In this document: piece by piece, positions 1,848-53,584 of the stretch
Layout of the letters: every line of letters starts with the position of its first letter
Numbering within the stretch: the first letter of the stretch is position 1
Origin: an uncultured Candidatus Saccharibacteria bacterium
GTDB taxonomy: Bacteria; Patescibacteriota; Saccharimonadia; Saccharimonadales; CAZARM01
Direction: 5' to 3'
DNA length: 64,000 bases
NCBI GenBank assembly: GCA_964487615.1
Contig: CAZARM010000001.1
Span: forward strand, 32,226-96,225
Notes under the pieces: model-generated
The model's input: only the letters and a program-made list of their open reading frames with translations
The model's database searches: none
Told to the model about the DNA's origin: nothing
Position numbers and translations under genes: made by a program

Positions 1848-2430
1848 GGACTACTTTGACTGGTTTATAACTAAGCCGGTGCAGCTCGCAGACTCCATGT
1901 AGCCTTAATAGTCGATGGTGCAACGATGTGCCATAACCCACGTGTTTTTCAAACTGGTAGAGTGGATGCTTCAGTCCGGCCCGACGCATGTAGGCATCCC
2001 GTTCAGTTTTAGCCAAGATGCTGGCTGCACTAACCGCTGGTACTAGTGCATCAGCTTTAATCATAGTTGCAAATCCCTCTGTGCAAGGAGTTTGATTGCA
2101 AGAACATAGGTAATTAAAGTTCCCGTCAATCAGCACTGGATAAATAACTTTGTCGATCGTGAGGTTTATTTCAGACAGAGCGGATTGCATTGCTTGGCGG
2201 GTGGCGGCTGTTAGGCCTATTTCGTCGATCTCTTTGGGAGTCACCCAGCCGACGCCGTAAGCTACGGCGCTAAGCTTAATTTCTGCGGCTAGTTTTTCTC
2301 TCTGGAGACGAGTTAGCTTTTTTGAATCGGCTAGTCCGAGGATCGGCAAATCTAGCAGCACAGCAGCTGCTACAAGCGGTCCCGCCCAGCAACCGCGTCC
2401 GGTTTCGTCAATCCCGACAATCATGTCCAT
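1825..2430 (-). CDS. rnhB: Ribonuclease HII
   Basis: GIDETGRG(C)WAGPLV N-terminal motif, about 200 aa. Overlaps the yraN start, which is operon-like. Confidence 0.9.
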   Translation of the reverse strand: MDMIVGIDETGRGCWAGPLVAAAVLLDLPILGLADSKKLTRLQREKLAAEIKLSAVAYGVGWVTPKEIDEIGLTAATRQAMQSALSEINLTIDKVIYPVLIDGNFNYLCSCNQTPCTEGFATMIKADALVPAVSAASILAKTERDAYMRRAGLKHPLYQFEKHVGYGTSLHHRLLRLHGVCELHRLSYKPVKVVLAGATDV

Positions 2431-2439
2431 GCCTCAATG

Positions 2440-2465
2440 GTAACAAAAAACCGCCTTTTTCGGCG
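2440..2465 (-). terminator. Rho-independent terminator downstream of rplS (GACCGCCG-loop-GGCGG followed by a T-run on the minus strand)
   Basis: Hairpin ccgcc/ggcgg with an A-run on plus, which reads as a T-run on minus, directly after the rplS stop. Confidence 0.6.
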
Positions 2466-2489
2466 GTCTGATTAAGGCTTGACAAAGGA

Positions 2490-3026
2490 TTACTCGGCCT
2501 TGGGAACTTCCTCGTGTTTAGCTATTGCCTCTTCAGCTTTAGCTTCGATCTTGGATTCTTCTTTGGCTTTTTCGGCTGCTTCGATCTCGTGCTGCTTTTC
2601 GGTCTCCTCCTTCAGTTTCTCGGCTTCAGCCTCGGCTTTTTCATCGACAATAGAATTTACAGCTTGGCGGTCGAAGTCTTGGCCTGTTAATCGAGCTGAT
2701 TTGCCAGTACGTGCGCGCATGTAAGTTAGATAATTGCGCCGGACCTTGCTGCGCTTTGTGACTTCAATCTTGACGACTAATGGACTATGGAGCAAGAAGC
2801 TCTTTTCGACACCGACGCCACTGGCAATGCGGCGCACCACGATCCGACTAGTGTGTGAGTTCTTGCGGTCAGTTCGAATAACCAGACCTTGAAAAATTTG
2901 GATTCGTTCTTTGCTGCCTTCACGAATTTTCTGGTGCACCTTAACAGTGTCGCCTGAATGAACGTCGACAATCTGTGGTTTCTTATAACGAGCTTCAATT
3001 TGGCTAATAACAGATGGCATAACCAA
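2490..3026 (-). CDS. rplS: 50S ribosomal protein L19 with a K/E/A-rich C-terminal extension of about 65 aa
   Basis: Core matches L19 (GDTVKVH.KI.EG.KERIQ.F.G.VI....G...T.T.R....GVGVE..F.LHSP....IEV.....VRR.KLYY.R). The tail DEKAEAEAEKLKEETEK... is low-complexity. Confidence 0.9.
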   Translation of the reverse strand: MVMPSVISQIEARYKKPQIVDVHSGDTVKVHQKIREGSKERIQIFQGLVIRTDRKNSHTSRIVVRRIASGVGVEKSFLLHSPLVVKIEVTKRSKVRRNYLTYMRARTGKSARLTGQDFDRQAVNSIVDEKAEAEAEKLKEETEKQHEIEAAEKAKEESKIEAKAEEAIAKHEEVPKAE

Positions 3027-3085
3027 TAGATATTACACTAAGTTACCCTTTTATGCAACTAGTTCTGATCTGTTATCATACATGC

Positions 3086-4219
3086 ATGGATTTCAATAAA
3101 ATAGCCCTCCAAAAACATAAACAATTGCGTGGAAAAATCGAGATTACTCTCAAAGATAAGTTAAACTCGCCGGACAAGTTGAGCACCTATTACACGCCTG
3201 GCGTAGCGGCGGTGTCTAGTTACGTGGCTGAGCACCCCGATGAAGCCCGGGACTACACCTGGCTCAACAACTCGGTGGCGGTTATTTCGGATGGATCAGC
3301 TGTTCTGGGGCTTGGAGATATCGGTCCGTATGGTGCATTGCCGGTTATGGAAGGCAAAGCCATGCTATTCAAGCACTTCGCTGGGATCGATGCTGTGCCA
3401 ATTGTGTTAGATGTACATACGGCTGATGAGATAGTCAGTGCAGTGCTTGCAATCGCACCGAGTTTTGGTGGCATAAATCTGGAAGACATTGCGGCTCCGA
3501 TTTGTTTTGAGGTCGAAGACCGCGTCAAAGCCGCGCTCAAGATTCCTGTCATGCACGACGACCAGCATGGGACAGCTGTAGTTGTGCTGGCTGGGCTTAT
3601 AAACGCTATGAAAGTAACTGGTCGAGATCTTAAAGATTGCCGGATTGTCACTGTCGGTGCCGGAGCTGCTGGCACTGCTATTATGAAGTTGTTGCATAAA
3701 TTTGCCGCCCCAGAGATTTTGGCGGTGGATAGCAAGGGCATTATTTCTGCCAAGCGGACAGATCTAAATGATGACAAGAAAAAGCTACTGAAGTTTACAA
3801 ATAAGCCCAATCTCAGCGGATCATTACAAGACGCTTTGAAAGGTGCTGATATATTTATCGGTGTCTCCAAGGCAGGCCTACTAACTGTCGATATGGTTAG
3901 ATCAATGAGTAAGGATCCAATAATTTTTGCTATGGCTAACCCAGTGCCAGAGATCATGCCGGACGAAGGCAAGATAGCCGGTGTTGCCGTCATGGCTACT
4001 GGTCGTAGTGACTTTCCCAATCAAGTAAATAATGCCCTGGCTTTTCCGGGTATTTTCCGTGGTGCACTAGACAATCGTGTCAGCAAGATCACTGATGAGC
4101 ACAAGATTGCTGCCGCTGAGGTTATTGCTAGCCTCGTAGACAACCCTACCGCAGAACAAATTATTCCCAGCGTTCTGGACGACCGTTTAGTCCCGGCCAT
4201 TGCGAAGGTGATCACCTAA
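3086..4219 (+). CDS. maeA: NAD(P)-dependent malic enzyme (short form)
   Basis: YTPGVA, SDGSAVLGLGDIG, DDQHGTAVV, GAGAAG and NQVNNALAFPGIFRGALD motifs. Start moved to ATG 3086 (MDFNK...); the ORF-track start at 3053 is also possible. Confidence 0.85.
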   Translation: MDFNKIALQKHKQLRGKIEITLKDKLNSPDKLSTYYTPGVAAVSSYVAEHPDEARDYTWLNNSVAVISDGSAVLGLGDIGPYGALPVMEGKAMLFKHFAGIDAVPIVLDVHTADEIVSAVLAIAPSFGGINLEDIAAPICFEVEDRVKAALKIPVMHDDQHGTAVVVLAGLINAMKVTGRDLKDCRIVTVGAGAAGTAIMKLLHKFAAPEILAVDSKGIISAKRTDLNDDKKKLLKFTNKPNLSGSLQDALKGADIFIGVSKAGLLTVDMVRSMSKDPIIFAMANPVPEIMPDEGKIAGVAVMATGRSDFPNQVNNALAFPGIFRGALDNRVSKITDEHKIAAAEVIASLVDNPTAEQIIPSVLDDRLVPAIAKVIT

Positions 4220-15897: not shown

Positions 15898-17004
15898 ATG
15901 TCTTCAATAGAGAAGGACGACTTCGGTGAACAGGCCGAAGGCCAAACTAATATAATCCAAACACCTCCGGCTGCGTATGGAGGTTTTTTATTAGAAAGAC
16001 CCGTACCACAGTTTGACTTAGAAGTTGTTGAAAGGAAGCTAGTCTGGCAAGCCAAGATACGGGATATTGGCTACTTTACGCGAGAGTTGGTTACTTTTAA
16101 TGATGGAACTCAGTACGAGGATCAACGATCAATGCCTGATAAAACCCGTTTCGATGTTGGCGCTACGATGACTACCCCTTGGTGTACGCGTATACCTGGC
16201 TACCCGACAGAGGTACAGAAGCTCCTGGCAGCACAAGGTATTGCATCGGACTTGGTTGGACCTCCGGAATTTCCTGTGAGTTTATTTTCGCCTCGTAAAA
16301 CTTTAAATATGCTCTCGAATATAAGACACTATGTGAGTAATTCGCATGATGCTGCCGCTCAGCTGACACTGGCACGAGATGCTGCTACTGCTGGGATGTT
16401 CGACGAGGAGACTTTAATGGCCCTGGGTTATTCTCGCGGTTGGATGATTGGCTGGGATCTATTGGCTCAAGATGAGCAGTTTGGATTTGATATCATCTAT
16501 TCGGATGGCACAGACCCATGTCTGGTAGTCAAAGCGAACCAAGATGATTTGAATATTACAGATCGAGATACCTACACCTACCTACCCCGCGAAGTTGCCG
16601 CGGCAATATATGCTATTCAGAACCATAGTTTGGCAGAAATTAAAGATCTGGTAAAAACCCTGCATGGCATGCCCAAATTCCTACAGCACGTTGCCGTAGG
16701 GTTTGCATTGTTCGAGGGACAAGCCGGCTGGCAAATCCCGAATATTCAAAAAGACAAAGTAGGTGTGGTGCGCTTATATGATAAAAGTCTCGGAAACCAG
16801 CGCGAGATATTAAAAACAGTCTTGGCAAGCTTCCCTAACCTTTACCTTATCGACCGTGAAGGGCTTCATGCATCGGGTATGCACCCAAATGTTCGAAAAG
16901 CAGCTGTAGGACGCATTGTTCTAGCACAAAATCTCCACGCTGAGGGTGTACCGCTAGAAAGCGTTGACTTCGGCAGCCTAGCGGCCTTGCCCATAGCAGC
17001 TTAA
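15898..17004 (+). CDS. Hypothetical protein. It carries a GYSRG pentapeptide that fits the GxSxG nucleophile-elbow pattern, so it may be an alpha/beta-hydrolase-like protein.
   Basis: 368 aa. Only the GxSxG-like motif was recognised. No confident family. Confidence 0.4.
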
Positions 17005-18968: not shown

Positions 18969-19001
18969 CGCTACATTGTATCAAGACACCGGGTTTATGT
19001 C

Positions 19002-19574
19002 TTAGGCGTATAGCCTACGGTACTTTTTGTGATCTTCATCAAGAATATCTACTAATTGGGCTATCAAATTTTCAGCATTGTCATCAAATATCACTCCTCC
19101 GCCTCGGCCCTCGCCAGCGGCGTGCAGGATGTCCATGATTTCTGTACTTATACCTCCACCACCGGCTAGGAAGCCAATCGGCGTATCAGTCTCAATAGCA
19201 ATCGTAAATTCATGCAATGTGCCTATACGACCACCAATACTAACCACGGCGTCAGCCGAATTTATCAGTACTGTGTCCCGTCCAACATAGTGCAAGCCGG
19301 TATACAAAATGGTGTCATAAGCATCAGTGGGCAAACGGTATTTCAAAACATGCTCAATCTTGCTAGATGCTGGGCTGATGCCGACGCTCATCAGACCCCC
19401 AGCTTTTTTATAAGCCTCAGCCGCATAATTAGGTAGTCCAATCGTGGCCCCAGTCATTAGACTATGACCAGACTTGGCTAAAGCGACACCTACCGACTCG
19501 GCTAACATCATACCTTCGGCTACGCTCTCACCTTTTGAGGCACCGCTAACACAAATTTGATATTTAGAGCTCAT
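19002..19574 (-). CDS. TIGR00725-family / LOG-like (SLOG) Rossmann-fold protein; possibly a nucleotide N-glycosidase
   Basis: ICVSGAS...GATIGLPNYAAEAYKKAGGLMSVGISP and VSIGGRIGTLHEF match the TIGR00725/LOG GGGxG...PGGxGTxxE pattern. Confidence 0.65.
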   Translation of the reverse strand: MSSKYQICVSGASKGESVAEGMMLAESVGVALAKSGHSLMTGATIGLPNYAAEAYKKAGGLMSVGISPASSKIEHVLKYRLPTDAYDTILYTGLHYVGRDTVLINSADAVVSIGGRIGTLHEFTIAIETDTPIGFLAGGGGISTEIMDILHAAGEGRGGGVIFDDNAENLIAQLVDILDEDHKKYRRLYA

Positions 19575-20825
19575 TTAGAAAGTCTCTCCGGCAAACTCCA
19601 GAATCTCGGGGTCTACCGTCTCATAATCTAAACTTTTCAAGACCTGGTTCTCTAGTGCAGGCTGGCCCATGTAACGGACAAACAACTCATTCCATAGCCC
19701 ATCCTGGGCATGCTGATAAACGCGATGTCCATAATCCAGTCCGTTTAGGTAGTTCAGTGCCATGTCCAGCAAATTAAAGCTGACTGGTTTATGGTCTCCT
19801 TTGGTGGCTACATAATCCATGCCGTGCCAAAAATGCAGTGCCGGCTCCAGATGATACAAGACTTCCTCAACGTTGCGCCAAGCTAGATCCTGATGCGTTA
19901 CATGAGGCTCCAATACTGACGGGTGCTGCTGACCTTTTCGGCCAAAATGTCGTTGTACTACGCGCCAATGAATTTCTTGACCAGCTATTTGAACATGAGT
20001 GCCCCGGTCGTATTGCAGAGAAGCGGCAATGCGCTCACCAAAGTCAGGTTGCATTTGGTGGAGCTTATAAAAAGAGCTGAACAAGCGAATCTCATTAACT
20101 TCGTAAAGCAGTAGAGGCAGCAATGTAATTGCCACCCCTGGACGTTTGTCTAGTGGCAACGGCAACATCAGGACTACACCAAGCTCTCGAATGTCCAATA
20201 AGTTATGGTGACGGCTTGAGGTGTAGGTGTTGGCGGCTTTCTGCCATTTGGTTTTATCTAGCAGCCTAATTTCTATGGGTCGGGTTTCGAAATCCATGGG
20301 CATTAGCTGGTGATACTGAGCTATGAACTTGCGATACCATTGATCCTTCTCGATAAGTTTTAGCCCACCAAATATTTCGCCGATTGGTTCACGCTTCAGC
20401 ATTGACTCCAGTGACTTGTAGCCCAAATAACGCATTAGGGCTTTGGGTGGTTGGAGCTTGAGCAAGCGCTTGGCGCTGCTAGCTTTTAGGACCCACGCCG
20501 TATGTGGTATCTTGGCCTGCAACACAGCATCCCGAATACGTGGAAGTAAAGCGTGCACGTCACTGGCATCAGCCACACCTAATTTTTTAGCCACAAAGCT
20601 GTCGTGCAAACGAACCAGATTGAGCAGCGCATAGTAGAGCTCTCGGCCGGTTGTGTCCCGCGGGTCAAGTCCTAGCTCACGTGTTTTTTGACGCGTTAGC
20701 GTCAATAAATCCGCGGTCAAGCGAACGTCAACGCTGTGATGCCCACTGGCGTGCTCCAAACGTCGAATATCATCAGCAAACAGCGCCTGATTGACCCCCA
20801 ACAATTCCGAAATGAGTCTAGACAT
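19575..20825 (-). CDS. Conserved hypothetical protein (416 aa) adjacent to the LOG-like gene
   Basis: No recognisable motif. No TM. Its stop abuts the LOG-like start (19574/19575). Confidence 0.5.
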   Translation of the reverse strand: MSRLISELLGVNQALFADDIRRLEHASGHHSVDVRLTADLLTLTRQKTRELGLDPRDTTGRELYYALLNLVRLHDSFVAKKLGVADASDVHALLPRIRDAVLQAKIPHTAWVLKASSAKRLLKLQPPKALMRYLGYKSLESMLKREPIGEIFGGLKLIEKDQWYRKFIAQYHQLMPMDFETRPIEIRLLDKTKWQKAANTYTSSRHHNLLDIRELGVVLMLPLPLDKRPGVAITLLPLLLYEVNEIRLFSSFYKLHQMQPDFGERIAASLQYDRGTHVQIAGQEIHWRVVQRHFGRKGQQHPSVLEPHVTHQDLAWRNVEEVLYHLEPALHFWHGMDYVATKGDHKPVSFNLLDMALNYLNGLDYGHRVYQHAQDGLWNELFVRYMGQPALENQVLKSLDYETVDPEILEFAGETF

Positions 20826-20885
20826 AATTACTACTTAGAATAGCGTAAAGCTTATGCTTTTACCACTGGTAATGACTGTGATTGT

Positions 20886-21884
20886 TCAGACTAACGGCAT
20901 GGCATGATAGTCGGCTGGTGCTTTCTCCAGCAGCGCCTGCAGTTCAGCTTGGGTCAAGAGACCCTGCTGGGCGCCAATGTACTGCGAAACATTCATGCTA
21001 TTGATTGGCGCCCATGCTAGGGCAGTCTCCAACGGTTGACCTTGCGCTAGAACGGTCGTTAGCGTGGATGCAAAGGCATCACCGGCACCCGTTCGATCAT
21101 AAGGCTGCTTCACGTCAGGATAGATCGGCATGAACAGATTTCTTTGACCATCGGATGCGTAAGCACCTGCCGGACCATCGGTGATAACAACGGTCTTAAC
21201 CCCTAGGTCGTGCATAGCCTGAATCAGTCCAGACACATCACCACGGTCTTTGCCGGTAATAGTTGCTGCCTCCTCGCGGTTAGTCACGACTATCTCTGCA
21301 CGTTGATAGAATGGCGCTAGTTTTTCGGCACCCCAAATCAAATGGTACATCCCGGGCTGGAAAGCCAACCTTATGTCCGGATTAGCAGACAGGTATTCAA
21401 GCATAGCCTGGTGCAACTCCTCTGTTTTCTCCCCTAAGACACCCAAGTACAACCAGTCGGGCTTTTGCGCGGGGGTCTTCCACTCGTAATCATAATCCTC
21501 AAACTTCTGAAGCTTGGTGCGGTCGGCCCCGTAGCGAAGATAAAAGTGATAATTTGACTTCTTACCGGTTTCGACTACTAGACAATCGGTGTTCACAGCT
21601 TGAGACTTGAGGTAGTCGATCATTTCTTGCCCAACGGCGTCATCTCCTAACCAAGCCATCAGGCTGACGTTCAAGCCTAGGCGCGCCATGGACACGGCTG
21701 CATTTGGCGCACATTCCACGGCCTTAACGACGTCTAACTTGTCATAAGGCAGCTTTGCCCCCAGCTCAAAACTCAAACGCTTGTAGCCTTTATCGTCAGT
21801 CGAAACTACTGCATACTCTTCAAATAAAGTGATAAATGCTCCGCTAATGATGTCTCCGACGCATAGTATGTGTGGTTTATTCAC
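20886..21884 (-). CDS. PfkB-family carbohydrate/nucleoside kinase (ribokinase superfamily), copy 1
   Basis: DRTGAGDAF anion-hole motif near the C-terminus. 332 aa. Confidence 0.8.
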   Translation of the reverse strand: MNKPHILCVGDIISGAFITLFEEYAVVSTDDKGYKRLSFELGAKLPYDKLDVVKAVECAPNAAVSMARLGLNVSLMAWLGDDAVGQEMIDYLKSQAVNTDCLVVETGKKSNYHFYLRYGADRTKLQKFEDYDYEWKTPAQKPDWLYLGVLGEKTEELHQAMLEYLSANPDIRLAFQPGMYHLIWGAEKLAPFYQRAEIVVTNREEAATITGKDRGDVSGLIQAMHDLGVKTVVITDGPAGAYASDGQRNLFMPIYPDVKQPYDRTGAGDAFASTLTTVLAQGQPLETALAWAPINSMNVSQYIGAQQGLLTQAELQALLEKAPADYHAMPLV

Positions 21885-22840
21885 AGTTTCTTTTCCTCCA
21901 TCCTCATTTCATGAATCGGGGTATCCTGCTTTAGGATCCCGACTTTGGCGCCTATTACGCTTACCACTGAGGTCGAATTGGCACTAGCAAAGGTAACGGC
22001 CTGCTTGAGCGACTGAGTAACCGCCCAATTAACAACGAACCCCGAACCAAACGCGTCGCCGGCACCAGTTCTATCTATAACTGGTACGTCTTTATAAATT
22101 CCGGCCTGAACATAATTTGTGCCGTCTGTGGCTGCCACGCCCTTTGGCCCATCGGACACTACTACTACTGGTGCCAATTTCGCTAGTGCTTCAACCAGAT
22201 CGTGCAGCGATTCGGCTTTGACAATCATTTGTGATTCTTGCTTGTTGACAATAAGCACTTCGACAAAGGGCAGGAGTGCTTTGATCTTATCGGTGTGCGC
22301 CAGTTCCGCTTTGCCTGGGTTCCAAGCAATCTTGATATTCAAACGCTTAGCATCGGCAAACAATTTCTCGAGGGTCTCCATCGATCCAGCCAGATTTGAC
22401 ATATAAAGCCAGTCGACCTGACCAACACTGGACAAGTCAAACTGAGCCGATTGGTAATGAGTCGATGCACCTCGGTAGGTAAGGATCGTCCGCTCCCCAT
22501 TGGCGGCCAGCAAGATTACCGAATAACCGGTGTTGTACTTTTCTGAATACGACAATTTGGCTTCCACACCTTCACGCTTTAGCTCCTCAGAAACGGCTTG
22601 ACCAGCTGGATCGTGGCCAATGGCACCCATAAAGACACTGTCTTGTCCCTGACGAGCAAATGTTACGGCCGCATTGGTTGCCCCGCCGCCAGTGCTGAAG
22701 TTGATTTGGTCGACGTCTGCCTTGCCGCCCATTTTGAGCTCAGCATAGAAAGAACCGTCTTCTTCTTTCACCGGATCCAGAGCGTCGCTGTGGCTCAAGA
22801 AAACATCCTGGACCGCAGCTCCAATCGACACAAATTTCAT
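21881..22840 (-). CDS. PfkB-family carbohydrate/nucleoside kinase (ribokinase superfamily), copy 2
   Basis: GGGATNAA N-terminal motif and DRTGAGDAF. 319 aa. Overlaps copy 1 by 4 nt. Confidence 0.8.
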   Translation of the reverse strand: MKFVSIGAAVQDVFLSHSDALDPVKEEDGSFYAELKMGGKADVDQINFSTGGGATNAAVTFARQGQDSVFMGAIGHDPAGQAVSEELKREGVEAKLSYSEKYNTGYSVILLAANGERTILTYRGASTHYQSAQFDLSSVGQVDWLYMSNLAGSMETLEKLFADAKRLNIKIAWNPGKAELAHTDKIKALLPFVEVLIVNKQESQMIVKAESLHDLVEALAKLAPVVVVSDGPKGVAATDGTNYVQAGIYKDVPVIDRTGAGDAFGSGFVVNWAVTQSLKQAVTFASANSTSVVSVIGAKVGILKQDTPIHEMRMEEKKL

Positions 22841-22919
22841 ATGTATTTATCCCTCTTGTTTGTATTTACATGATACTTGGTGTTTAGAATATACGCCATC
22901 TGTATATTGAACTGTGTAG

Positions 22920-23954
22920 TTATAGGTCCTGGCTAGTGGAAACAAAATCGTCAGTGTGGACACCCAAGTCAAGTCTACCTTGACGGGCTTGGACTGCTAG
23001 CATCAGTTGATGATCGAAAATAGCCGCAGGGTCACCTTCTTTAGCCGCCCAAGCCTTAAGCACCGGGTCTTGCAAGGCACGCGAATAAGAAAAAGTTACA
23101 CCCCAAGGGTGGTCAGCAGCCTGAGCGATTAAGTTCAAGTTCTTAAAAGCATCGTCTGGTACCTGCCCTCCGCTCAAGAACACAACGCCACCCAACTCTT
23201 TGGGTGCATGTTCATGTAAAACGCGGACTGTCCGATTGGCAACATCTTGATTATCAATTGCTATTCCAGAGTCTTTTCCGGGCAATACCATGCTCGTTTT
23301 TAAAATCGCGCCAGGCAAATGAACACGCATAGCCCGCATGAGTTTGAAAAGCCCGTCTAATGTTCTTTCCAAGGCCTGCTCGCACTGCTCAATTGTATGA
23401 TTGCCTTCGAACAACACTTCAGGCTCGACCATTGGTACGATGCCCGCTTCCTGACAAATTCTAGCGTAACGGCTCAAAACAAAAGCATTGCTCTCTATGC
23501 ATTCTTGGGTTGGTATACCGTCACCTATGGTGATCACCGCTCGCCATTTAGCAAACTTGGCGCCATTTTCTGCGTAGTGCTTGATGCGTTCTGGCAGACT
23601 ATCTAGGCCTTTGGTTAGCTTCTCGCCTTTAAATCCCGGCAAGTCAATCAGCCCTTCGTCAACTTTAATCCCTGGCAGAACACCGATTCCATGCAGATAG
23701 TCAGTAAATGGAACATGATCATCGGTTTGTTGCCAAAATGTTTCATCAAAAAGGATCACGCCACTCAAATTATCGGCGTTGCCTGGTGCCGTTAATAGAA
23801 TCTGGCGGTACTGACGACGGGTTTCAGGGGTACATTCGACCCCGACGGCGTCAAATCGTTTCTGGCAGCTGGCGTTACTTTCGTCTGCAGCCAGAACGCC
23901 ATTACCACTCCCGACTAGTTGTTTAGCAATTGTCTCGAGTGCTTGAGTGTCCAT
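22920..23954 (-). CDS. fba: Fructose-bisphosphate aldolase, class I (Schiff-base type)
   Basis: GILAADES-like GVLAADES, KWRAV, LKTSMVLPG (Schiff-base Lys region), VVFLSGGQ and FSYSRALQ motifs. Confidence 0.85.
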   Translation of the reverse strand: MDTQALETIAKQLVGSGNGVLAADESNASCQKRFDAVGVECTPETRRQYRQILLTAPGNADNLSGVILFDETFWQQTDDHVPFTDYLHGIGVLPGIKVDEGLIDLPGFKGEKLTKGLDSLPERIKHYAENGAKFAKWRAVITIGDGIPTQECIESNAFVLSRYARICQEAGIVPMVEPEVLFEGNHTIEQCEQALERTLDGLFKLMRAMRVHLPGAILKTSMVLPGKDSGIAIDNQDVANRTVRVLHEHAPKELGGVVFLSGGQVPDDAFKNLNLIAQAADHPWGVTFSYSRALQDPVLKAWAAKEGDPAAIFDHQLMLAVQARQGRLDLGVHTDDFVSTSQDL

Positions 23955-24929
23955 TTACTTCTTCGCTTCCATTAGTTCGTGTGCGGCAATGGCTATGTGC
24001 TTAGCAGTCAGTCCAAAGTGCTCTAGCAACTCTTCCGGTTCGCCGGACTCACCAAAGCGATCGCGGATGCCTAAGCGTTTCAGTGGCGCTGGAAATTCTT
24101 CGCCCAGTAGCTCCGCTACTGCGCTACCCAGGCCTCCAGCAATTTGAGCTTCCTCAATGGTAATCACGTGTTTGGTTTTGTGGACTGATTGCAAGATTGT
24201 AGCTCCATCCAGTGGTTTCACGGTTGGGCAGTGTACGACTTCTACGTCAATCCCATCTTTAAATAACATGTCGGCAGCCAGCAGTGCCTGGTATGTGAGC
24301 GGACCGGTGGCGACGATGGTCAGGTCCGCTCCTGTAGCATAAACATAGGCTTTGCCGATTTCAAAAGGAGTCTGTTCAGTCGTAAATATTGCGCTGTCGG
24401 AGCGGGCTAAGCGTAAGTAGCTTGGTCGGTGGTCTTTAGCAAGTGCCAGGGTCGTGCGTTCAGCCTCTAAACTGTCACCCGGGACCACTACAACCATATT
24501 AGGTAGCACTCGCATGAGGGCTATATCCTCCAACATCTGGTGAGTTGCGCCATCCGGACCAACTGAAACCCCGGCGTGTGAACCAACAATCTTGACCGGA
24601 CGGTCATTTAGGCAAATCGTTGTGCGAATCTGCTCCCAGTTACGACCAGGACTAAAGGCGGCGTAAGAGGAGACGAACGGGATCTTGCCCATGGCGGCCA
24701 TACCTGACCCAACAGTCACTAAGTTCTGCTCAGCTACACCAATTTCTACAAAACGATCTGGGAACTCTTTGGCAAACAAACTCATCTGTGTCGAATCGGT
24801 TAAATCAGCGCAGGCAGCCACGACGTCTTCGTTGTCTTTGCCGGCTTGCAGCAAACCACGCCCAAAACCCTTGCGGGTGGCTTCTTGTTCAAGCTTGCCA
24901 TGCACATCGTGCAGATGAAAACTACTCAT
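23955..24929 (-). CDS. tktB: Transketolase C-terminal subunit (pyrimidine-binding and C-terminal domains)
   Basis: Start placed at MSSFHLHDV, which overlaps the N-subunit stop by 8 nt. The ORF-track extension to 25067 is read-through into the upstream gene. Confidence 0.85.
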   Translation of the reverse strand: MSSFHLHDVHGKLEQEATRKGFGRGLLQAGKDNEDVVAACADLTDSTQMSLFAKEFPDRFVEIGVAEQNLVTVGSGMAAMGKIPFVSSYAAFSPGRNWEQIRTTICLNDRPVKIVGSHAGVSVGPDGATHQMLEDIALMRVLPNMVVVVPGDSLEAERTTLALAKDHRPSYLRLARSDSAIFTTEQTPFEIGKAYVYATGADLTIVATGPLTYQALLAADMLFKDGIDVEVVHCPTVKPLDGATILQSVHKTKHVITIEEAQIAGGLGSAVAELLGEEFPAPLKRLGIRDRFGESGEPEELLEHFGLTAKHIAIAAHELMEAKK

Positions 24930-25767
24930 GTTCACCTCTAATTTTGCCATTAAGGGTGCGAAGTTGATGGAGGGCTTTTTTGGCCTCTTCATGGTTGGGC
25001 GGCGAGCCGTGCCAATGGAAATCATACTCCATGAAATCGACACCCTTGCCGGGGACTGTATGAGCAATAATCATGATCGGCTTTTCTACCACTGCTCGCC
25101 CCATAGCACAGGCATCTATGACAGCTTCGACATTATTGCCATCAATTTCTATGACATGCCAGCCAAAGGCTTCCCACTTTTCTTTTAGGTCATCAAGAGG
25201 CATAACGGTCTCAGTCGGCCCATCAATCTGAATGTTGTTACGGTCGGTAATGGCAATGATGTTATTTAGCTTGTATTTTGAGCAGAGCATGGCGGCTTCC
25301 CAGACATTCCCCTCGTCCTGCTCGCCATCACTCATGACGACATACACCCAACGGTGCTGGTCTTTGTTCATACGCATCGCCAGAGCCATACCGGCCGCCT
25401 GACTTAGCCCGCAGCCTAAGGGGCCACTGGTATTTTCTAGTCCGGGCAATTTCTGGCGCTCTGGATGCCCCTGGAGCCGCGAACCAAACCGCCGCAAAGT
25501 CAAAAGCTCTTTGATATCAAAATACCCGGCCTCAGCCATGCTAGCGTAACGCACCGGCACACAGTGACCGTTGCTTAGCAGCAAAATATCCCGTTGGTCC
25601 CAGTCAGGTTCTTTGGGATTATGTTTCAAAATATCAAAATAAAGCGCGGCGAAGATGTCGGCTAGTCCTAATGGACCGGCACTGTGGCCACTGCCAGCAT
25701 GTTCCAGCATGCGGATAATATCCACCCTGATATTAGTGGCTTTTTGTTCAATTTCTGCTATTTTCAT
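24922..25767 (-). CDS. tktA: Transketolase N-terminal subunit (TPP-binding)
   Basis: HSAGPLGLADI and GHCVP...GYF motifs. 281 aa. Split transketolase arrangement. Confidence 0.85.
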   Translation of the reverse strand: MKIAEIEQKATNIRVDIIRMLEHAGSGHSAGPLGLADIFAALYFDILKHNPKEPDWDQRDILLLSNGHCVPVRYASMAEAGYFDIKELLTLRRFGSRLQGHPERQKLPGLENTSGPLGCGLSQAAGMALAMRMNKDQHRWVYVVMSDGEQDEGNVWEAAMLCSKYKLNNIIAITDRNNIQIDGPTETVMPLDDLKEKWEAFGWHVIEIDGNNVEAVIDACAMGRAVVEKPIMIIAHTVPGKGVDFMEYDFHWHGSPPNHEEAKKALHQLRTLNGKIRGEHE

Positions 25768-26426
25768 CTGTTTGTATCCACGCTTGCTATCTTATTTAGT
25801 GTAGCATAAGCGGCCTGAGGATCTTCGGCCCGTTCAATGAAGCCACCGGCGTTCAAAACGTCTATTCCGCCATCGATCAGCTTCTGGCAATTTTTATCGT
25901 TGATGCCGCCGTCCCAGCCAATTTCAAGCTCTTTTTTCATTTTTTTCAGCAGTCGCACTTTGTCAAGCAACTTCAGGTCAATCTGACCTCCGAAGTGGCC
26001 CAACTCGCCCGAGAATATCAGCACATGGTCAATGTGCTCTAATGCTGGCCGAATAACGTCCGGCGCCGTGGCCGCCAGCAACGCCACGCCGACCTTGATG
26101 TCTGCCTCATGAAGCTTCTTGGCAAAACTTATAAAACTGCCTTCGGCCTCGGCGTGGATAATGACCAGGGTCGGCTCAAGCTTAACAATGTCGTCTAGGT
26201 ATAGGTCTGGCCTCTCATACATTAAATGTAAGTCGGCCTGTACACTATGAGGCCACCATACTCCACGGATGGCCAGACTTTTAGGCTTGGCGAATAATCC
26301 ATCGGTTAGGTCAATCTGCACGCGTGTCGCAAACGGTGCAATCCGCTCCATCTGCTCTCGAAACTGATGAGCGTTATGGGCTAAAACCGTTGGACATACT
26401 ACGGCCATAATGTCAGAGCTCATCAA
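25764..26426 (-). CDS. rpe: Ribulose-phosphate 3-epimerase
   Basis: CPTVLAH...QIDLTDGLF (equivalent to PSILSAD...DVMDGHFV) and IFSGELGHFGGQ...IDGGI. 220 aa. Confidence 0.75.
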   Translation of the reverse strand: MMSSDIMAVVCPTVLAHNAHQFREQMERIAPFATRVQIDLTDGLFAKPKSLAIRGVWWPHSVQADLHLMYERPDLYLDDIVKLEPTLVIIHAEAEGSFISFAKKLHEADIKVGVALLAATAPDVIRPALEHIDHVLIFSGELGHFGGQIDLKLLDKVRLLKKMKKELEIGWDGGINDKNCQKLIDGGIDVLNAGGFIERAEDPQAAYATLNKIASVDTNR

Positions 26427-26856
26427 TCTGCTTAATACGCCTTTTGAACCTGTCGGCTCCGGCGAATGGCGTTGTCAGCCAGGTGGCAATGATAGCTTCG
26501 GCTTTAGCTTCTTTTAGAACTCTCGCCGGCAAACAAGCCACATTGGAGTCGTCGTCATTACGCGCAGCGCTAGCCGCTTCCCGATCAAACAACAGTGCCG
26601 CACGAATGCCTTTAAATCTATTGGCGGCCATGCACATGCCCTGGCCACTACCACAGATCAAGATCCCACGGGGATCAGGGTCACTACTAGCCAGCATGGC
26701 ATGAGTCAACTTGGCAGCAAAGATTGGGTAATCGTCTTCTGGATCCATCCGCTCATCACCAGTGTCCAGTACGTTGTGGCCTTGGGCTTTTAGGATGCCC
26801 TCCAAACGTTCCTTGAGGTGAAACCCGTTATGGTCAGAACCGATGAAAATGTTCAT
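26413..26856 (-). CDS. rpiB: Ribose-5-phosphate isomerase B (RpiB/LacAB family)
   Basis: IFIGSDHNGFHLKE...ILICGSGQGMCMAANRFKGIRAAL motifs. 147 aa. Confidence 0.9.
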   Translation of the reverse strand: MNIFIGSDHNGFHLKERLEGILKAQGHNVLDTGDERMDPEDDYPIFAAKLTHAMLASSDPDPRGILICGSGQGMCMAANRFKGIRAALLFDREAASAARNDDDSNVACLPARVLKEAKAEAIIATWLTTPFAGADRFKRRIKQIDEL

Positions 26857-26860
26857 GTGT

Positions 26861-27883
26861 TTACTCGGCTTTTTTATGTATCAACTTGCCTGTATCAGCT
26901 ACCTGCTCAACCAGACGATTCGAGTAGCCCCATTCGTTGTCATACCAGATGACGACTTTTACCAGGTTTCCGGCTACCACATTGGTAAGCTCTAGATCTA
27001 CAATTCCGGAACGACTGTCGCCAATATAGTCACTACTCACAAGTGGTTCATCGGAGACTCCAATAATACCCTGGTAGTACGGCTCTTTTGAGGCTTTTGT
27101 AAGCAGATCGTTTATTTCCTCTTTGGTGCTGTCCTTCTTAAGCAACATGGTCACGTCACTTAAAGACACGACCGGCGTAGGCACCCGAACACTTAGGCCG
27201 TCAAACTTTCCTTTAAGACTCGGCACGGTCAGCGCTACCGCAATTGCTGCTCCAGTAGTGGTAGGCACAATGTTGTGTGCGGCGGCCCGACCTTCTCGGG
27301 GATCTTTAGTCGGGCTATCGGTAAGCGTTTGGCTGGCAGTATCACTATGTACGGTAGTCAGCATGGCCTTTTCGATGCCAAATTCGCGATCCATGATATC
27401 CATAATGGCGGCAATGCTGTTGGTAGTGCAGCTGGCATTGCTAATGATGTTGCCGGCTTTCTCTAACTCTTTGTCATTGGCACCAATTACGATGGTCTCT
27501 ATGTCATCACTTTTGGAGGGTGCGGAAATGACTACTTTTTTGGCACCCGCCTTGAGATGGGCCGAGGCGTCTTCGCTCTTGGTGAAACGCCCGGTCGACT
27601 CGATAACTACATCCACGTCCAGATCTTTCCATGGCAACATACTTGGATCTTTTTCTGCGGAAACGGGAATCGATGTGCCATCAACAATTAGATTCTTTTC
27701 GTCAAATGTCACCTTGTGCTCATATTTTCCATAGTTTGAGTCATGCACTAATAAATAGGCTAATTCCTTGGTATCGGTCAGGTCATTAATGCCGACAATC
27801 TCTAGATCAGTCCGTTCAAAAGCAATCCTAAAGCTGAGTCGGCCAATTCGCCCAAACCCATTTATTGCAACTCGTGTTTTCAT
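26861..27883 (-). CDS. gap: Glyceraldehyde-3-phosphate dehydrogenase
   Basis: INGFGRIGR and SNASCTTN active-site motif. 340 aa. Confidence 0.95.
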   Translation of the reverse strand: MKTRVAINGFGRIGRLSFRIAFERTDLEIVGINDLTDTKELAYLLVHDSNYGKYEHKVTFDEKNLIVDGTSIPVSAEKDPSMLPWKDLDVDVVIESTGRFTKSEDASAHLKAGAKKVVISAPSKSDDIETIVIGANDKELEKAGNIISNASCTTNSIAAIMDIMDREFGIEKAMLTTVHSDTASQTLTDSPTKDPREGRAAAHNIVPTTTGAAIAVALTVPSLKGKFDGLSVRVPTPVVSLSDVTMLLKKDSTKEEINDLLTKASKEPYYQGIIGVSDEPLVSSDYIGDSRSGIVDLELTNVVAGNLVKVVIWYDNEWGYSNRLVEQVADTGKLIHKKAE

Positions 27884-27962
27884 GTTTTATGCCACCCCAA
27901 ATATTTAGTGAATTTTATCTGTTGTTATTGTATAAGCACTGGCGTTATCTCGCAACCACTTC

Positions 27963-28574
27963 CTAGCGATCGACCTCTTGGCCTTTAAACTCAGGTAAGT
28001 CAAGTAAAGCTTCCAATGAAGTAGCCTTAGCAAAAAGCGACGTAAAGTAACTCATCATAGGGTAGTTGCCAGACAACACTGACGACCTGACTTGATCGAA
28101 GGGCTGGAGCTTGACGCTAATCTTCTCTCCGTCTGGGTCAAACTGTTGCTCAAACAGCTGATCGAACTCAGTAGCAACAAAAATCGGAGTAAACCATTCA
28201 ATCTTTACAGCTGGCTGATCAGATGCAACGTGACGCCACTTTTTGAATGTCATCCCTGTTTCCTCCCGCAACTCTCGCTTGGCTGCATCTAGCCAGTTAT
28301 CGTCTTCTTCGTCCGGCCGACCACCAGGCAAATGTACTTGCATAGGACGTCCGGGCTGTTGATCCTCGACTATGACTACTTTTCCATCTTTTATGGCAAT
28401 GACTTGAACAGTGTCAACACGTTTCATCATCTCAAAAGTTTTAATTGACCCGTTGAACATCTCTTGGGGCCATTGGTAGACGTCAAAGATCTTGCCTTGA
28501 AACGCGAGAGTAGCTTTGTCAGGAATCAAAAACGCATTTTTAGATATAACTTTTTTCATTTTTTTTATTTCCAA
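27963..28574 (-). CDS. NUDIX hydrolase
   Basis: Nudix box GGRPDEEDDNWLDAAKRELREETGM. Confidence 0.85.
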   Translation of the reverse strand: MEIKKMKKVISKNAFLIPDKATLAFQGKIFDVYQWPQEMFNGSIKTFEMMKRVDTVQVIAIKDGKVVIVEDQQPGRPMQVHLPGGRPDEEDDNWLDAAKRELREETGMTFKKWRHVASDQPAVKIEWFTPIFVATEFDQLFEQQFDPDGEKISVKLQPFDQVRSSVLSGNYPMMSYFTSLFAKATSLEALLDLPEFKGQEVDR

Positions 28575-40470: not shown

Positions 40471-40480
40471 GCTTCCCTTG

Positions 40481-40551
40481 CTCCGCCAGTAGGACTCGAA
40501 CCTACAACCTCCTCACCTGAGTGAAGTGCTCTGCCATTGAGCTATGACGAA
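40481..40551 (-). ncRNA. tRNA-like element. Acceptor stem, D-arm (GCTC-AATGGCA-GAGC) and T-arm (GTAGG-TTCGAGT-CCTAC) are canonical. The anticodon region instead forms a 6-bp/4-nt hairpin (CTTCAC-TCAG-GTGAGG). No 7-nt anticodon loop can be drawn. CCA is not encoded.
   Basis: Folded manually from the reverse complement. The U1-A72 acceptor stem has two G-U pairs. It is either a tRNA pseudogene or the tRNA-like module of the adjacent GC-rich RNA. Confidence 0.35.
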
Positions 40552-53011: not shown

Positions 53012-53584
53012 CTAAGGCTCAGACCTAATGGGAAATACAGGGTGAAACTGTCGATTCAGGGTTTCTAAGCGCGCGTCAAATGCCTCTACGAGGTCAAAAC
53101 CCAGTGATTCTGCCTGTAAATTAGCGGAGACCAGCAGTAAACGAACAACGTCTTGTATCACAGGTACCCTTTTATCAATTGCTGCTTCGCGCGTTGAGGC
53201 ATGACTTAGATCATCCAGATTACCAGCCAACTTCTCAGTTGCCTCCCAGACAGCTGCTTGGCTTACTGGAGTTTCTCCTACTCTGTTCGCTAATCTAGTT
53301 GCTATTACTTCTTCTCTAGACGCAGGAACTAGATCGTTCGGACTTTGTTGTGTCCAACGTCCTAGTCGCAGTCCGTATCGCACTGTGTCAGGAGCAATAA
53401 ATTTCGGAACTTCCCAAGTGCTTGTAAAATCTCTATGAAACATGCCCTTAACGATGCTTGACAATACGCGATGAGCATTCAATTCGAAGCCGTCATCCTC
53501 ATGCTTCCAGCCACCCTCAATAACATCATAAACATATAGGTTACCGGCCATTTCATCAAGAGCATCAGCGGACATCAATATCAT
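53012..53584 (-). CDS. Hypothetical protein with a possible C-terminal MazG-like NTP pyrophosphohydrolase fold
   Basis: C-terminal VWEATEKLAGNLDDL...IQDVVRLLLVSANLQAESLGFDLVEAFDARLETLNRQ resembles the MazG E-E-x-x-E/D helix pair. Weak. Confidence 0.35.
   Translation of the reverse strand: MILMSADALDEMAGNLYVYDVIEGGWKHEDDGFELNAHRVLSSIVKGMFHRDFTSTWEVPKFIAPDTVRYGLRLGRWTQQSPNDLVPASREEVIATRLANRVGETPVSQAAVWEATEKLAGNLDDLSHASTREAAIDKRVPVIQDVVRLLLVSANLQAESLGFDLVEAFDARLETLNRQFHPVFPIRSEP

Follow-up and report, generated by a model that had tools for sequence, protein, structure and literature searches.

Patescibacteria, including Saccharibacteria, lack nucleotide synthesis and have a gapped central metabolism, with no annotated phosphofructokinase (PFK) and usually no transaldolase. 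For Saccharibacteria, Starr et al. (PMC6031116) reported that de novo synthesis of nucleotides and of phosphoribosyl pyrophosphate (PRPP) is missing together with an annotated 6-phosphofructokinase, that transaldolase is missing from all analyzed genomes but the authors' own, and that these bacteria carry many NUDIX genes and live on scavenged nucleotides. In the same work a LOG gene of a rhizosphere Saccharibacterium was read as a cytokinin activator (cytokinin riboside 5'-monophosphate phosphoribohydrolase). Here we describe a minus-strand block of sugar phosphate genes at positions 19002 to 27883 of a 64-kb stretch of Candidatus Saccharibacteria DNA (hereafter, the window), which ends with a gene for a LOG-like Rossmannoid protein of SLOG cluster 4 (PF18306).

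Several related arrangements have been described. A Microgenomates genome devoid of PFK and transaldolase has a class I fructose-bisphosphate aldolase (FBA) gene downstream of the transketolase gene, in one operon (Kadnikov et al., PMC7143001). In the Saccharibacteria strain TM7x, the product of TM7x_02415, a gene of the FBA operon earlier called 'ribokinase', was predicted to be a pfkB-type phosphofructokinase, and the gene is glucose induced (2025 ISME J, PMC12815258). In clostridia, PFK and FBA replace transaldolase through sedoheptulose-1,7-bisphosphate (SBP) (Koendjbiharie et al., PMC7029132). We found no account applying this SBP bypass to Saccharibacteria in the literature searched. The operon itself and the idea that its PfkB acts as a phosphofructokinase, put forward for TM7x, are thus already known.

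The block comprises ten open reading frames (ORFs), all on the minus strand and all present where the first-pass annotation had placed them. The first is gap (26861 to 27883), coding for a type I GAPDH that scores 407.3 bits against TIGR01534 (cutoff, 367.2) and carries the Pfam domains Gp_dh_N and Gp_dh_C. It is followed by rpiB (26413 to 26856), for ribose-5-phosphate isomerase B of 147 amino acids (aa) (NF004051, 158.4 bits; cutoff, 135; PF02502), and by the gene of an rpe-family ribulose-phosphate 3-epimerase of about 219 aa (25764 to 26426; PF00834, 85.7 bits; cutoff, 21.1). The start codon of the latter is TTG at 26426 or ATG at 26423, and its product scores under the NCBIfam equivalog cutoffs, indicating a divergent member of the family. 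Transketolase is encoded by two genes, tktN (24922 to 25767) for the N-terminal, thiamine diphosphate-binding subunit of 281 aa (PF00456, 199 bits), and tktC (23955 to 24929) for the C-terminal subunit, 324 aa long from the ATG at 24929 (PF02779 and PF02780) and with orthologues of 323 to 329 aa. Then come a class I (Schiff-base) FBA of 344 aa (22920 to 23954; NF033379, 410 bits, above the equivalog cutoff of 250; PF00274, 363 bits), a PfkB-family sugar(-phosphate) kinase of type B, PfkB1, of 319 aa (21881 to 22840; PF00294, 147.8 bits), a PfkB-family kinase of type A, PfkB2, of 332 aa with a GTG start (20886 to 21884; PF00294, 118.5 bits), an orphan protein of 416 aa that matches no family (19575 to 20825), and the SLOG protein of 190 aa (19002 to 19574; PF18306, 96 bits; cutoff, 26.3).

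Most junctions read from the sequence are tight. tktN and tktC overlap by 8 nucleotides (nt) and the two pfkB genes by 4 nt (GTGA), both as given in the first-pass annotation; tktC and fba abut without a spacer, as do the orphan and SLOG genes (TAA, then ATG), and 4 nt separate gap from rpiB. Wider spacers lie between fba and pfkB1 (79 nt) and between pfkB2 and the orphan gene (60 nt). The identities proposed in the first-pass annotation for the sugar genes, the PfkB pair and the 416-aa gene are confirmed, whereas its assignment of the last gene to the LOG family and TIGR00725 holds at the superfamily level only. The co-oriented run exceeds the block, extending from 29699 to 17001 as ppa, a methyltransferase gene, a NUDIX gene, the block and uvrB, the last of which starts 33 nt downstream of the block.

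To place the block in its lineage, one genome per GTDB species was scanned. A relative of the SLOG protein is encoded by 385 of these genomes; 80 loci, titled almost all Candidatus Saccharibacteria or Saccharimonadales, were retrieved and compared with the window proteins by tblastn. The dominant architecture was ppa-(nudix)-gap-rpiB-rpe-tktN-tktC-fba-pfkB-orphan-SLOG-uvrB. The order tkt-fba-pfkB-orphan-SLOG was found in each of the 77 species-representative loci whose upstream DNA reaches far enough, including two seeming exceptions that carry an orphan homologue at just 20 to 30% identity. Three more contigs show the same order, one identified through a 74%-identical SLOG protein and two through a SLOG clade approximately 63% identical to the window protein. 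The block did not come together by chance but is a conserved central sugar phosphate operon of Saccharibacteria (TM7).

The window is a variant of this operon, in which a class I FBA replaces the class II enzyme and both alternative PfkB types occur in tandem. The slot after tktC contains a class II FBA gene in every locus that covers it, except in the window and in locus L034, where it is of class I. The class I FBA gene of the window (22920 to 23954, minus strand) is an in situ non-orthologous displacement (compare L002, 6478 to 7395), and in L026 the slot is filled by a class II FBA gene, with a class I-like one on the other strand. The description of the split transketolase and the class I aldolase as archaeal or eukaryote-like features was overstated, the former being the norm and the latter a rare replacement in situ. 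In the slot after FBA, a single PfkB is normal in Saccharibacteria. Types A and B share just 28% identity (genes compared with those of the window: L002, 7640 to 8644; L163, 7701 to 8684). Most loci have type A, similar to PfkB2 (41 to 48% identity), whereas the lone PfkB of L163 is of type B and matches PfkB1 at 54% identity. The tandem arrangement was found in the window, L028 and L034.

The protein encoded by the last gene of the operon belongs to PF18306: its residues 4 to 146 align with positions 1 to 130 of the 151-position profile, and all its homologues carry this domain. It scored below the LOG models, with 16.9 bits (cutoff, 27) for the Pfam LOG family PF03641, 39.5 bits (cutoff, 96.35) for TIGR00730 and 29.1 bits (cutoff, 300) for the cytokinin-LOG equivalog NF058542. 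With TIGR00725 it reached 65.7 bits, under the cutoff of 106.9, although JGI labels the orthologues 'TIGR00725 family'; no mention of TIGR00725 was found in the literature searched. Among solved structures, the closest sequences were those of TM1055 (1RCU) and then of the molybdenum cofactor (Moco) carrier or binding proteins 6Y01 and 2IZ5 (for all three, E values of 3e-9 to 5e-6 and 22 to 26% identity), canonical LOGs being reached only at an E value of about 1e-3. An AlphaFold2 (AF2) model of moderate quality (pLDDT of 68.6, 12-sequence alignment) served only to rank folds and was not relied on for the geometry of the active site. Foldseek ranked the Moco carriers 6Y01 and 2IZ5 first, followed by the type I LOG structures 5ZBK and 5ZBJ and by 1RCU, with TM scores of about 0.7. 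Given that the fold neighbors comprise Moco carrier proteins (MCPs), LOGs and 1RCU, the fold assignment is secure, but membership of the LOG family is not.

In CgLOG, Arg99 and Glu122 are proposed to be catalytic, and the PGGxGTxxE motif binds phosphate (PMC4979012). In profile alignments, R99 and G115/G118/T119/E122 of the SLOG protein align with CgLOG Arg99 and with this motif. The aligned segment, G114-G-R-I-G-T-L-H-E122, keeps the G, the G-T and the final E, with the P replaced by G and the second G by R. R99 and E122 are near-invariant across the PF18306 family; the catalytic Arg/Glu pair on which the idea of an N-glycosidase depended is therefore retained, without being diagnostic (see below). 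In addition, S67, P68 and H75 are strictly invariant in 37 family representatives of 31 to 62% identity. The corresponding S-P-A...(E)H motif is missing where LOG, MCP and TM1055 sequences were aligned, and it might point to a ligand or chemistry of its own. This is a small family, with 914 clusters at 50% identity for E values of at most 1e-3 and 20 for E values of at most 1e-30, out of 1.84 billion sequences. Within Saccharibacteria, the SLOG protein is 66 to 79% identical, which is on par with transketolase and UvrB.

Our explanation of the operon, whose chances as a whole we put at just short of even, is that of a conserved central carbon operon with PfkB/FBA routes and the SLOG protein as an accessory feeder. 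The PfkB kinase or kinases and the aldolase most likely convert fructose-6-phosphate (F6P) to fructose-1,6-bisphosphate and then to trioses. As transaldolase is generally missing in the lineage, they most likely also run an SBP bypass, in which sedoheptulose-7-phosphate (S7P) would be phosphorylated to SBP and cleaved to erythrose-4-phosphate and dihydroxyacetone phosphate. No transaldolase was found among the ORFs scanned in the window, the 64 kb being the extent of that scan. An ATP-driven PfkB would make the bypass effectively one way, from pentose phosphates to hexoses and trioses and on to GAPDH. Such a route would require a source of pentose phosphates, and in a scavenger without PRPP synthesis the obvious one is the ribose of nucleotides and nucleosides. 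The SLOG protein may bind a nucleoside 5'-monophosphate (NMP) through its phosphate loop and Arg99, and Glu122, possibly with the family-specific His75, would cleave the N-glycosidic bond to release ribose-5-phosphate (R5P) for RpiB. It would then be an accessory, dispensable feeder from scavenged nucleotides rather than an obligatory entry step, possibly with the orphan protein as a partner. This putative NMP N-glycosidase activity is attractive because the fold, the Arg/Glu pair with the phosphate loop, and fusions of the family to RNase and deaminase domains are all compatible with it; it is nevertheless tentative and in our estimation rather more probably wrong than right.

The family was also considered outside the operon. 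We retrieved 80 metagenomic loci for a SLOG branch 38 to 48% identical to the window protein. The uvrB product of that branch, where present, is 51 to 53% identical to that of the window, versus 69 to 90% within Saccharibacteria; on this ground and because of its different synteny, the branch was judged to lie outside Saccharibacteria. What recurs in this branch is a co-oriented gene for a beta-CASP metallo-beta-lactamase RNA hydrolase immediately upstream of SLOG, in 38 of the 56 loci whose upstream sequence is long enough (clustering gives 52 of 77), and downstream of SLOG come genes for a Trp/Tyr-type permease and MgtC (for example, L149, 8557 to 9918; set L083 to L162). Among 50%-cluster representatives, the SLOG domain is fused to a beta-CASP RNase (P0288, and P0512 as a full-length version of 694 aa) and to a dCMP/cytidine deaminase (P0360); other fusions are with a YHS domain or consist of tandem SLOG domains (P0300 is among the fusion proteins listed). 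The fused domains retain the family signature. In Southlakia epibionticum, a second PF18306 paralogue, SEML1_0423, is located beside a phosphoribosyltransferase (PRTase)-like gene on the opposite strand. These associations support a role of the PF18306 family in RNA or nucleotide metabolism, independently of the operon, and the RNase and deaminase fusions together with the neighborhoods lend support to the nucleotide half of the idea set out in the first-pass annotation, which had seen in the block a self-contained module from nucleotides to GAPDH.

Published transposon sequencing (Tn-seq) data for S. epibionticum grown on its host, with hidden Markov model calls at T0/T1/T2 (Wang et al., PMC10633639, Table S1), bear on the contribution of each gene. 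Calls of nonessential (NE) or growth defect (GD) were NE/NE/NE for gap (SEML1_0553), NE/GD/GD for rpiB (SEML1_0552), GD/GD/GD for rpe (SEML1_0551), NE with falling read counts for the tkt genes (SEML1_0550 and SEML1_0549), NE/GD/GD for the class II FBA gene (SEML1_0548) and NE/NE/GD for pfkB (SEML1_0547). Insertions in rpiB and rpe are thus worse than those in the tkt or GAPDH genes, which is unexpected for a simple linear route from pentoses to glycolysis; their cost may reflect the toxicity of accumulated pentose phosphates.

A number of observations weigh against the SLOG protein feeding such a pathway by NMP cleavage. SEML1_0546, its positional orthologue in S. epibionticum, was called NE/NE/NE, with normalized reads rising from 2084 to 3748, and the paralogue SEML1_0423 was also NE (PMC10633639). 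Growth defects in rpiB, rpe, fba and pfkB and none in the SLOG gene indicate that the sugar steps matter for fitness, whereas the LOG-like gene, singly and in coculture, does not. In place of the LOG motif PGGxGTxxE the SLOG protein has GGRIGTLHE, and at the adenine contacts of CgLOG (Met96, Lys100 and Glu121), Lys100 is replaced by Asp and Glu121 by His in the alignment. TM1055 and the noncatalytic Moco carriers 2IZ5 and 6Y01 likewise have this Arg and Glu, so that retention of the pair does not show catalysis. In the branch outside Saccharibacteria, 79 of the 80 loci have no adjacent pentose phosphate genes, and rpiB-rpe-tkt is near SLOG in 1 of 80; it is only in Saccharibacteria that SLOG is associated with the pentose pathway. 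Within Saccharibacteria, synteny runs on through uvrB, gatC, gatA, gatB and dnaE. Conserved order is therefore by itself no proof of shared function and may be inherited, and the fact that the block stays together in 77 of 77 loci, although consistent with the earlier idea, is not diagnostic, as unrelated genes are equally syntenic. S. epibionticum has no orphan gene, the gap between pfkB and its LOG gene being 9 nt. Lastly, the PfkB pair reaches no equivalog cutoff, leaving F6P, S7P, ribose and nucleosides all as candidate substrates. As for the proposed self-contained module, the link to nucleotides has gained ground through the fusions and neighborhoods; its self-contained character has lost ground, given a linkage confined to one lineage, the synteny of unrelated genes and the dispensability of the gene in Tn-seq.

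The main alternative is that the SLOG protein binds a phosphorylated or nucleotide-derived ligand without turning it over, as a carrier, buffer or sensor, in the manner of MCP or of the SLOG domain of ThsA, which senses cyclic ADP-ribose. The orphan protein might cooperate with it, and the position of the SLOG gene after the sugar genes would reflect inherited order or shared regulation, not a metabolic handoff. The ranking of Moco carriers as top structural matches, and as top sequence matches after TM1055, fits this alternative, as do the conservation of the Arg and Glu in those carriers and the restriction of the pentose phosphate linkage to Saccharibacteria. A protein conserved at 66 to 79% identity yet dispensable in Tn-seq would also be unusual for a main-line catabolic enzyme, and in Thoeris SLOG domains act as sensors. 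However, the fusions to enzymes (beta-CASP RNase and dCMP/cytidine deaminase) and the invariant S67, H75, R99 and E122 fit catalysis equally well or better. To our knowledge, Moco-dependent metabolism is not expected in such reduced genomes, which counts against a Moco-like binder. We regard a noncatalytic role as doubtful, though a serious contender.

A second alternative, compatible with the others, concerns the kinases. If at least one PfkB were a ribokinase or a nucleoside or ribose-1-phosphate kinase, free ribose or nucleosides could enter the pathway, and a LOG-like step would not be needed. Both proteins contain DRTGAGDAF, with the catalytic GAGD anion-hole motif, and have the PfkB fold. 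The best NCBIfam match of both is the ribokinase model TIGR02152, at 116.3 and 90 bits, far under the equivalog cutoff of 299.65, and the scores with PRK11142 were 82.9 and 70.6 bits against 341. An ATP-dependent ribose-1-phosphate kinase model was the second-best match of PfkB1 and the tenth-best of PfkB2. Ribokinases prevail among the nearest solved structures; with PfkB1 the first chain, 3H49, also goes by the name of sugar kinase YdjH and is followed by fructokinases. The Pfk-2 equivalog NF007632 gave only 19.3 and 19.4 bits against a cutoff of 353. All these matches being far under equivalog cutoffs, a substrate call by NCBIfam or PDB similarity was abandoned. The co-occurrence in the window of two PfkB types with 28% identity suggests two substrates, but the fact that types A and B fill the same slot singly in different clades suggests that they are isofunctional. 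Furthermore, the TM7x orthologue in this slot is the predicted, glucose-induced phosphofructokinase, and pfkB follows fba in its Tn-seq profile. Ribose or nucleoside entry through a PfkB thus seems somewhat unlikely to us. The phosphofructokinase role that the first-pass annotation had given to PfkB agrees with the published prediction for TM7x (PMC12815258), even though neither kinase reaches the equivalog level.

The SLOG protein might also be an enzyme of nucleotide house-cleaning or RNA turnover that removes damaged or noncanonical (deoxy)nucleoside monophosphates or completes the breakdown of RNA; it would then serve to sanitize the pool, with R5P an incidental product and not an energy source. 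The neighborhood and fusion with beta-CASP RNase and the fusion with deaminase would be in keeping with this function, and the block is flanked by a NUDIX gene and uvrB. Saccharibacteria depend on scavenged, possibly damaged nucleotides and have many NUDIX genes (PMC6031116), a yeast LOG has been tied to the detoxification of base analogues (PMC11228631), and nonessentiality in rich coculture fits sanitation. On the other hand, the side on which the SLOG gene abuts is that of the sugar operon, and uvrB seems to be served by a promoter of its own; in S. epibionticum the SLOG gene lies 9 nt from pfkB and is separated from uvrB by five small ORFs. On balance, we consider a house-cleaning role unlikely.

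That the protein is a cytokinin-activating Lonely Guy enzyme manipulating plants, as annotated for a Saccharibacteria gene in PMC6031116 and as the weak NF058542 match of 29 bits might evoke, is highly improbable, and we rejected this reading: the cutoff of that model is 300, PF03641 is under its own cutoff, the alignable adenine-contact positions, Lys100 and Glu121, differ (the prenyl pocket of CgLOG being Met96, His97, Lys100, Glu125 and Trp129), and the PF18306 gene is universal in Saccharibacteria of sludge, groundwater, oral and other nonplant habitats.

The feeder explanation leaves a possible place for the orphan protein. This protein was found only on Saccharibacteria-type contigs. It has 596 homologues, a few of them with a named source, which is Saccharimonadales, Saccharibacteria or Patescibacteria except for one bin labeled Limnocylindria. 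Neither Pfam, NCBIfam nor PDB sequence searches, profiles included, yielded a family match. The AF2 model is confident (pLDDT of 89.9 and pTM of 0.87, 61-sequence alignment) and shows a mostly helical alpha/beta protein, for which Foldseek found no structural neighbor in PDB (best E value, 0.14) or BFVD (best E value, 0.29), with TM scores of about 0.1. The gene is present in 77 of 77 loci at 20 to 61% identity, and it evolves far faster than the abutting SLOG gene (66 to 79%). The motifs LGLDPxDTxxxELY and LGYRSxDSMLK are invariant across its very divergent members. The absence of a spacer between the orphan and SLOG genes suggests cotranslation and possibly a partnership. It may be that the two form an unrecognized nucleotide-catabolic module of Saccharibacteria that removes the bases of scavenged nucleotides and delivers R5P to a transaldolase-free, PfkB-driven pentose pathway, a distinctly unlikely idea in our view.

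We also examined the limits of the transcription unit. A promoter-like site, TTGCGA-17-TACAAT, is found at 27927 to 27955 (minus strand) in the 79-nt spacer between the NUDIX gene and gap, and a second one with the extended -10 element TGATACAAT at 18975 to 19003 (minus strand), 7 nt before the ATG of uvrB. Both are consensus matches, and in a promoter and terminator scan of the region such matches were not above the shuffled expectation. With this weak evidence, the first site is likely the start of the transcription unit, and the second is a weak hint of its probable 3' boundary; together they agree, as far as consensus matches go, with the block boundaries drawn in the first-pass annotation. 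The genes upstream of gap vary among relatives, being ppa/NUDIX or relA on the opposite strand, which fits gap as the start of an operon with a variable flank. A search at Rfam gathering thresholds gave no riboswitch or other regulatory RNA for the block.

Several features around the block were recorded. The proximity of TGATACAAT to the uvrB start codon suggests a near-leaderless uvrB transcript, and a weak hairpin, AGACA...TGTCT, overlaps the stop codon of the SLOG gene (18969 to 19003, minus strand). The relA-type neighbor of other Saccharimonadales clades is a divergent gene for a RelA/SpoT-family (p)ppGpp synthetase/hydrolase upstream of gap (L163, 1048 to 2565; L165, 1222 to 2700). The NUDIX hydrolase gene upstream of gap in the window (27963 to 28574, minus strand) has NudE, an ADP-compounds hydrolase, as its sole NCBIfam match, far under the cutoff; an ADP-ribose-type NUDIX enzyme would likewise yield R5P. 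A homologue was found at that position in 10 of the 81 loci scored by tblastn, and L002 has two other NUDIX-domain genes there. An ORF of 368 aa without a Pfam family (15898 to 17004, plus strand) is convergent with uvrB, and some Saccharibacteria loci carry weak homologues of it (22 to 27% identity) in the corresponding place. Elsewhere in the window are another ORF without a Pfam family, of 190 aa (53012 to 53584, minus strand), and a tRNA gene (40480 to 40551, minus strand; Rfam, 52 bits) for which ARAGORN gives no amino acid and a two-base anticodon, 'ca'.

If the SLOG protein frees R5P and PfkB and FBA fill the transaldolase gap, the operon would explain how scavenged nucleic acid is converted to ATP, and a function would be assigned to a family that is near-universal in the lineage (385 species representatives). 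If the two-protein module exists, it would be a third route from nucleotides to glycolysis in ultrasmall bacteria, besides the AMP phosphorylase/RuBisCO route. If we are wrong, the block reduces to a housekeeping sugar operon that had been annotated before, with two passenger genes left unexplained. As the cultivated and genetically tractable TM7x and S. epibionticum carry the same operon, these possibilities are directly testable.

Compared with known systems, the SLOG protein shares with LOG and PpnN (YgdH) enzymes (PF03641/TIGR00730) the Rossmannoid fold, with TM scores of about 0.7 to 5ZBK, 5ITS and 9US2, as well as the aligned Arg and the G-x-G-T-x-x-E phosphate loop, and the conversion of NMP to base and R5P proposed for it is theirs. 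It differs from them in falling under every curated LOG cutoff and in its GGRxGTxxE motif, its base contacts and its own S-P-A...H motif. Its closest solved relatives are the Moco carriers of Chlamydomonas (2IZ5) and Rippkaea (6Y01) and Thermotoga TM1055 (Foldseek E values of about 1e-8; TM scores of 0.7 to 0.8). The MCPs belong to the same branch of the Pfam clan, and the ECOD assignment is 'MCP/YpsA-related' (PMC10633639, Table S2); unlike the SLOG family of the window, MCP and TM1055 do not have the S-P-A...E-H motif.

At the pathway level, the route through AMP phosphorylase, ribose-1,5-bisphosphate (R15P) isomerase and form II/III RuBisCO in the Candidate Phyla Radiation (CPR) and archaea embodies the same idea of channeling nucleotide ribose into lower glycolysis (mentioned in PMC7304191), but with wholly different enzymes and intermediates, and none of its genes is in the block. 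The clostridial SBP bypass resembles the present operon more closely, with transketolase, FBA and a sugar phosphate kinase but no transaldolase; fba is operonic here and directly follows tkt. The clostridial kinase is a PPi- or ATP-dependent enzyme of the PfkA family with measured S7P activity, whereas here it would be of the PfkB family. The nearest counterparts are the operons of TM7x (Nanosynbacter lyticus, TM7x_02415/02420) and S. epibionticum (SEML1_0546 to SEML1_0553), which have the same genes in the same order; there too the gene for the PfkB kinase is followed by one for a PF18306 'LOG family protein', and uvrB lies further downstream. The window differs from them by its class I instead of class II FBA and by its two PfkB types instead of one, and from S. 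epibionticum also by the presence of the 416-aa orphan gene.

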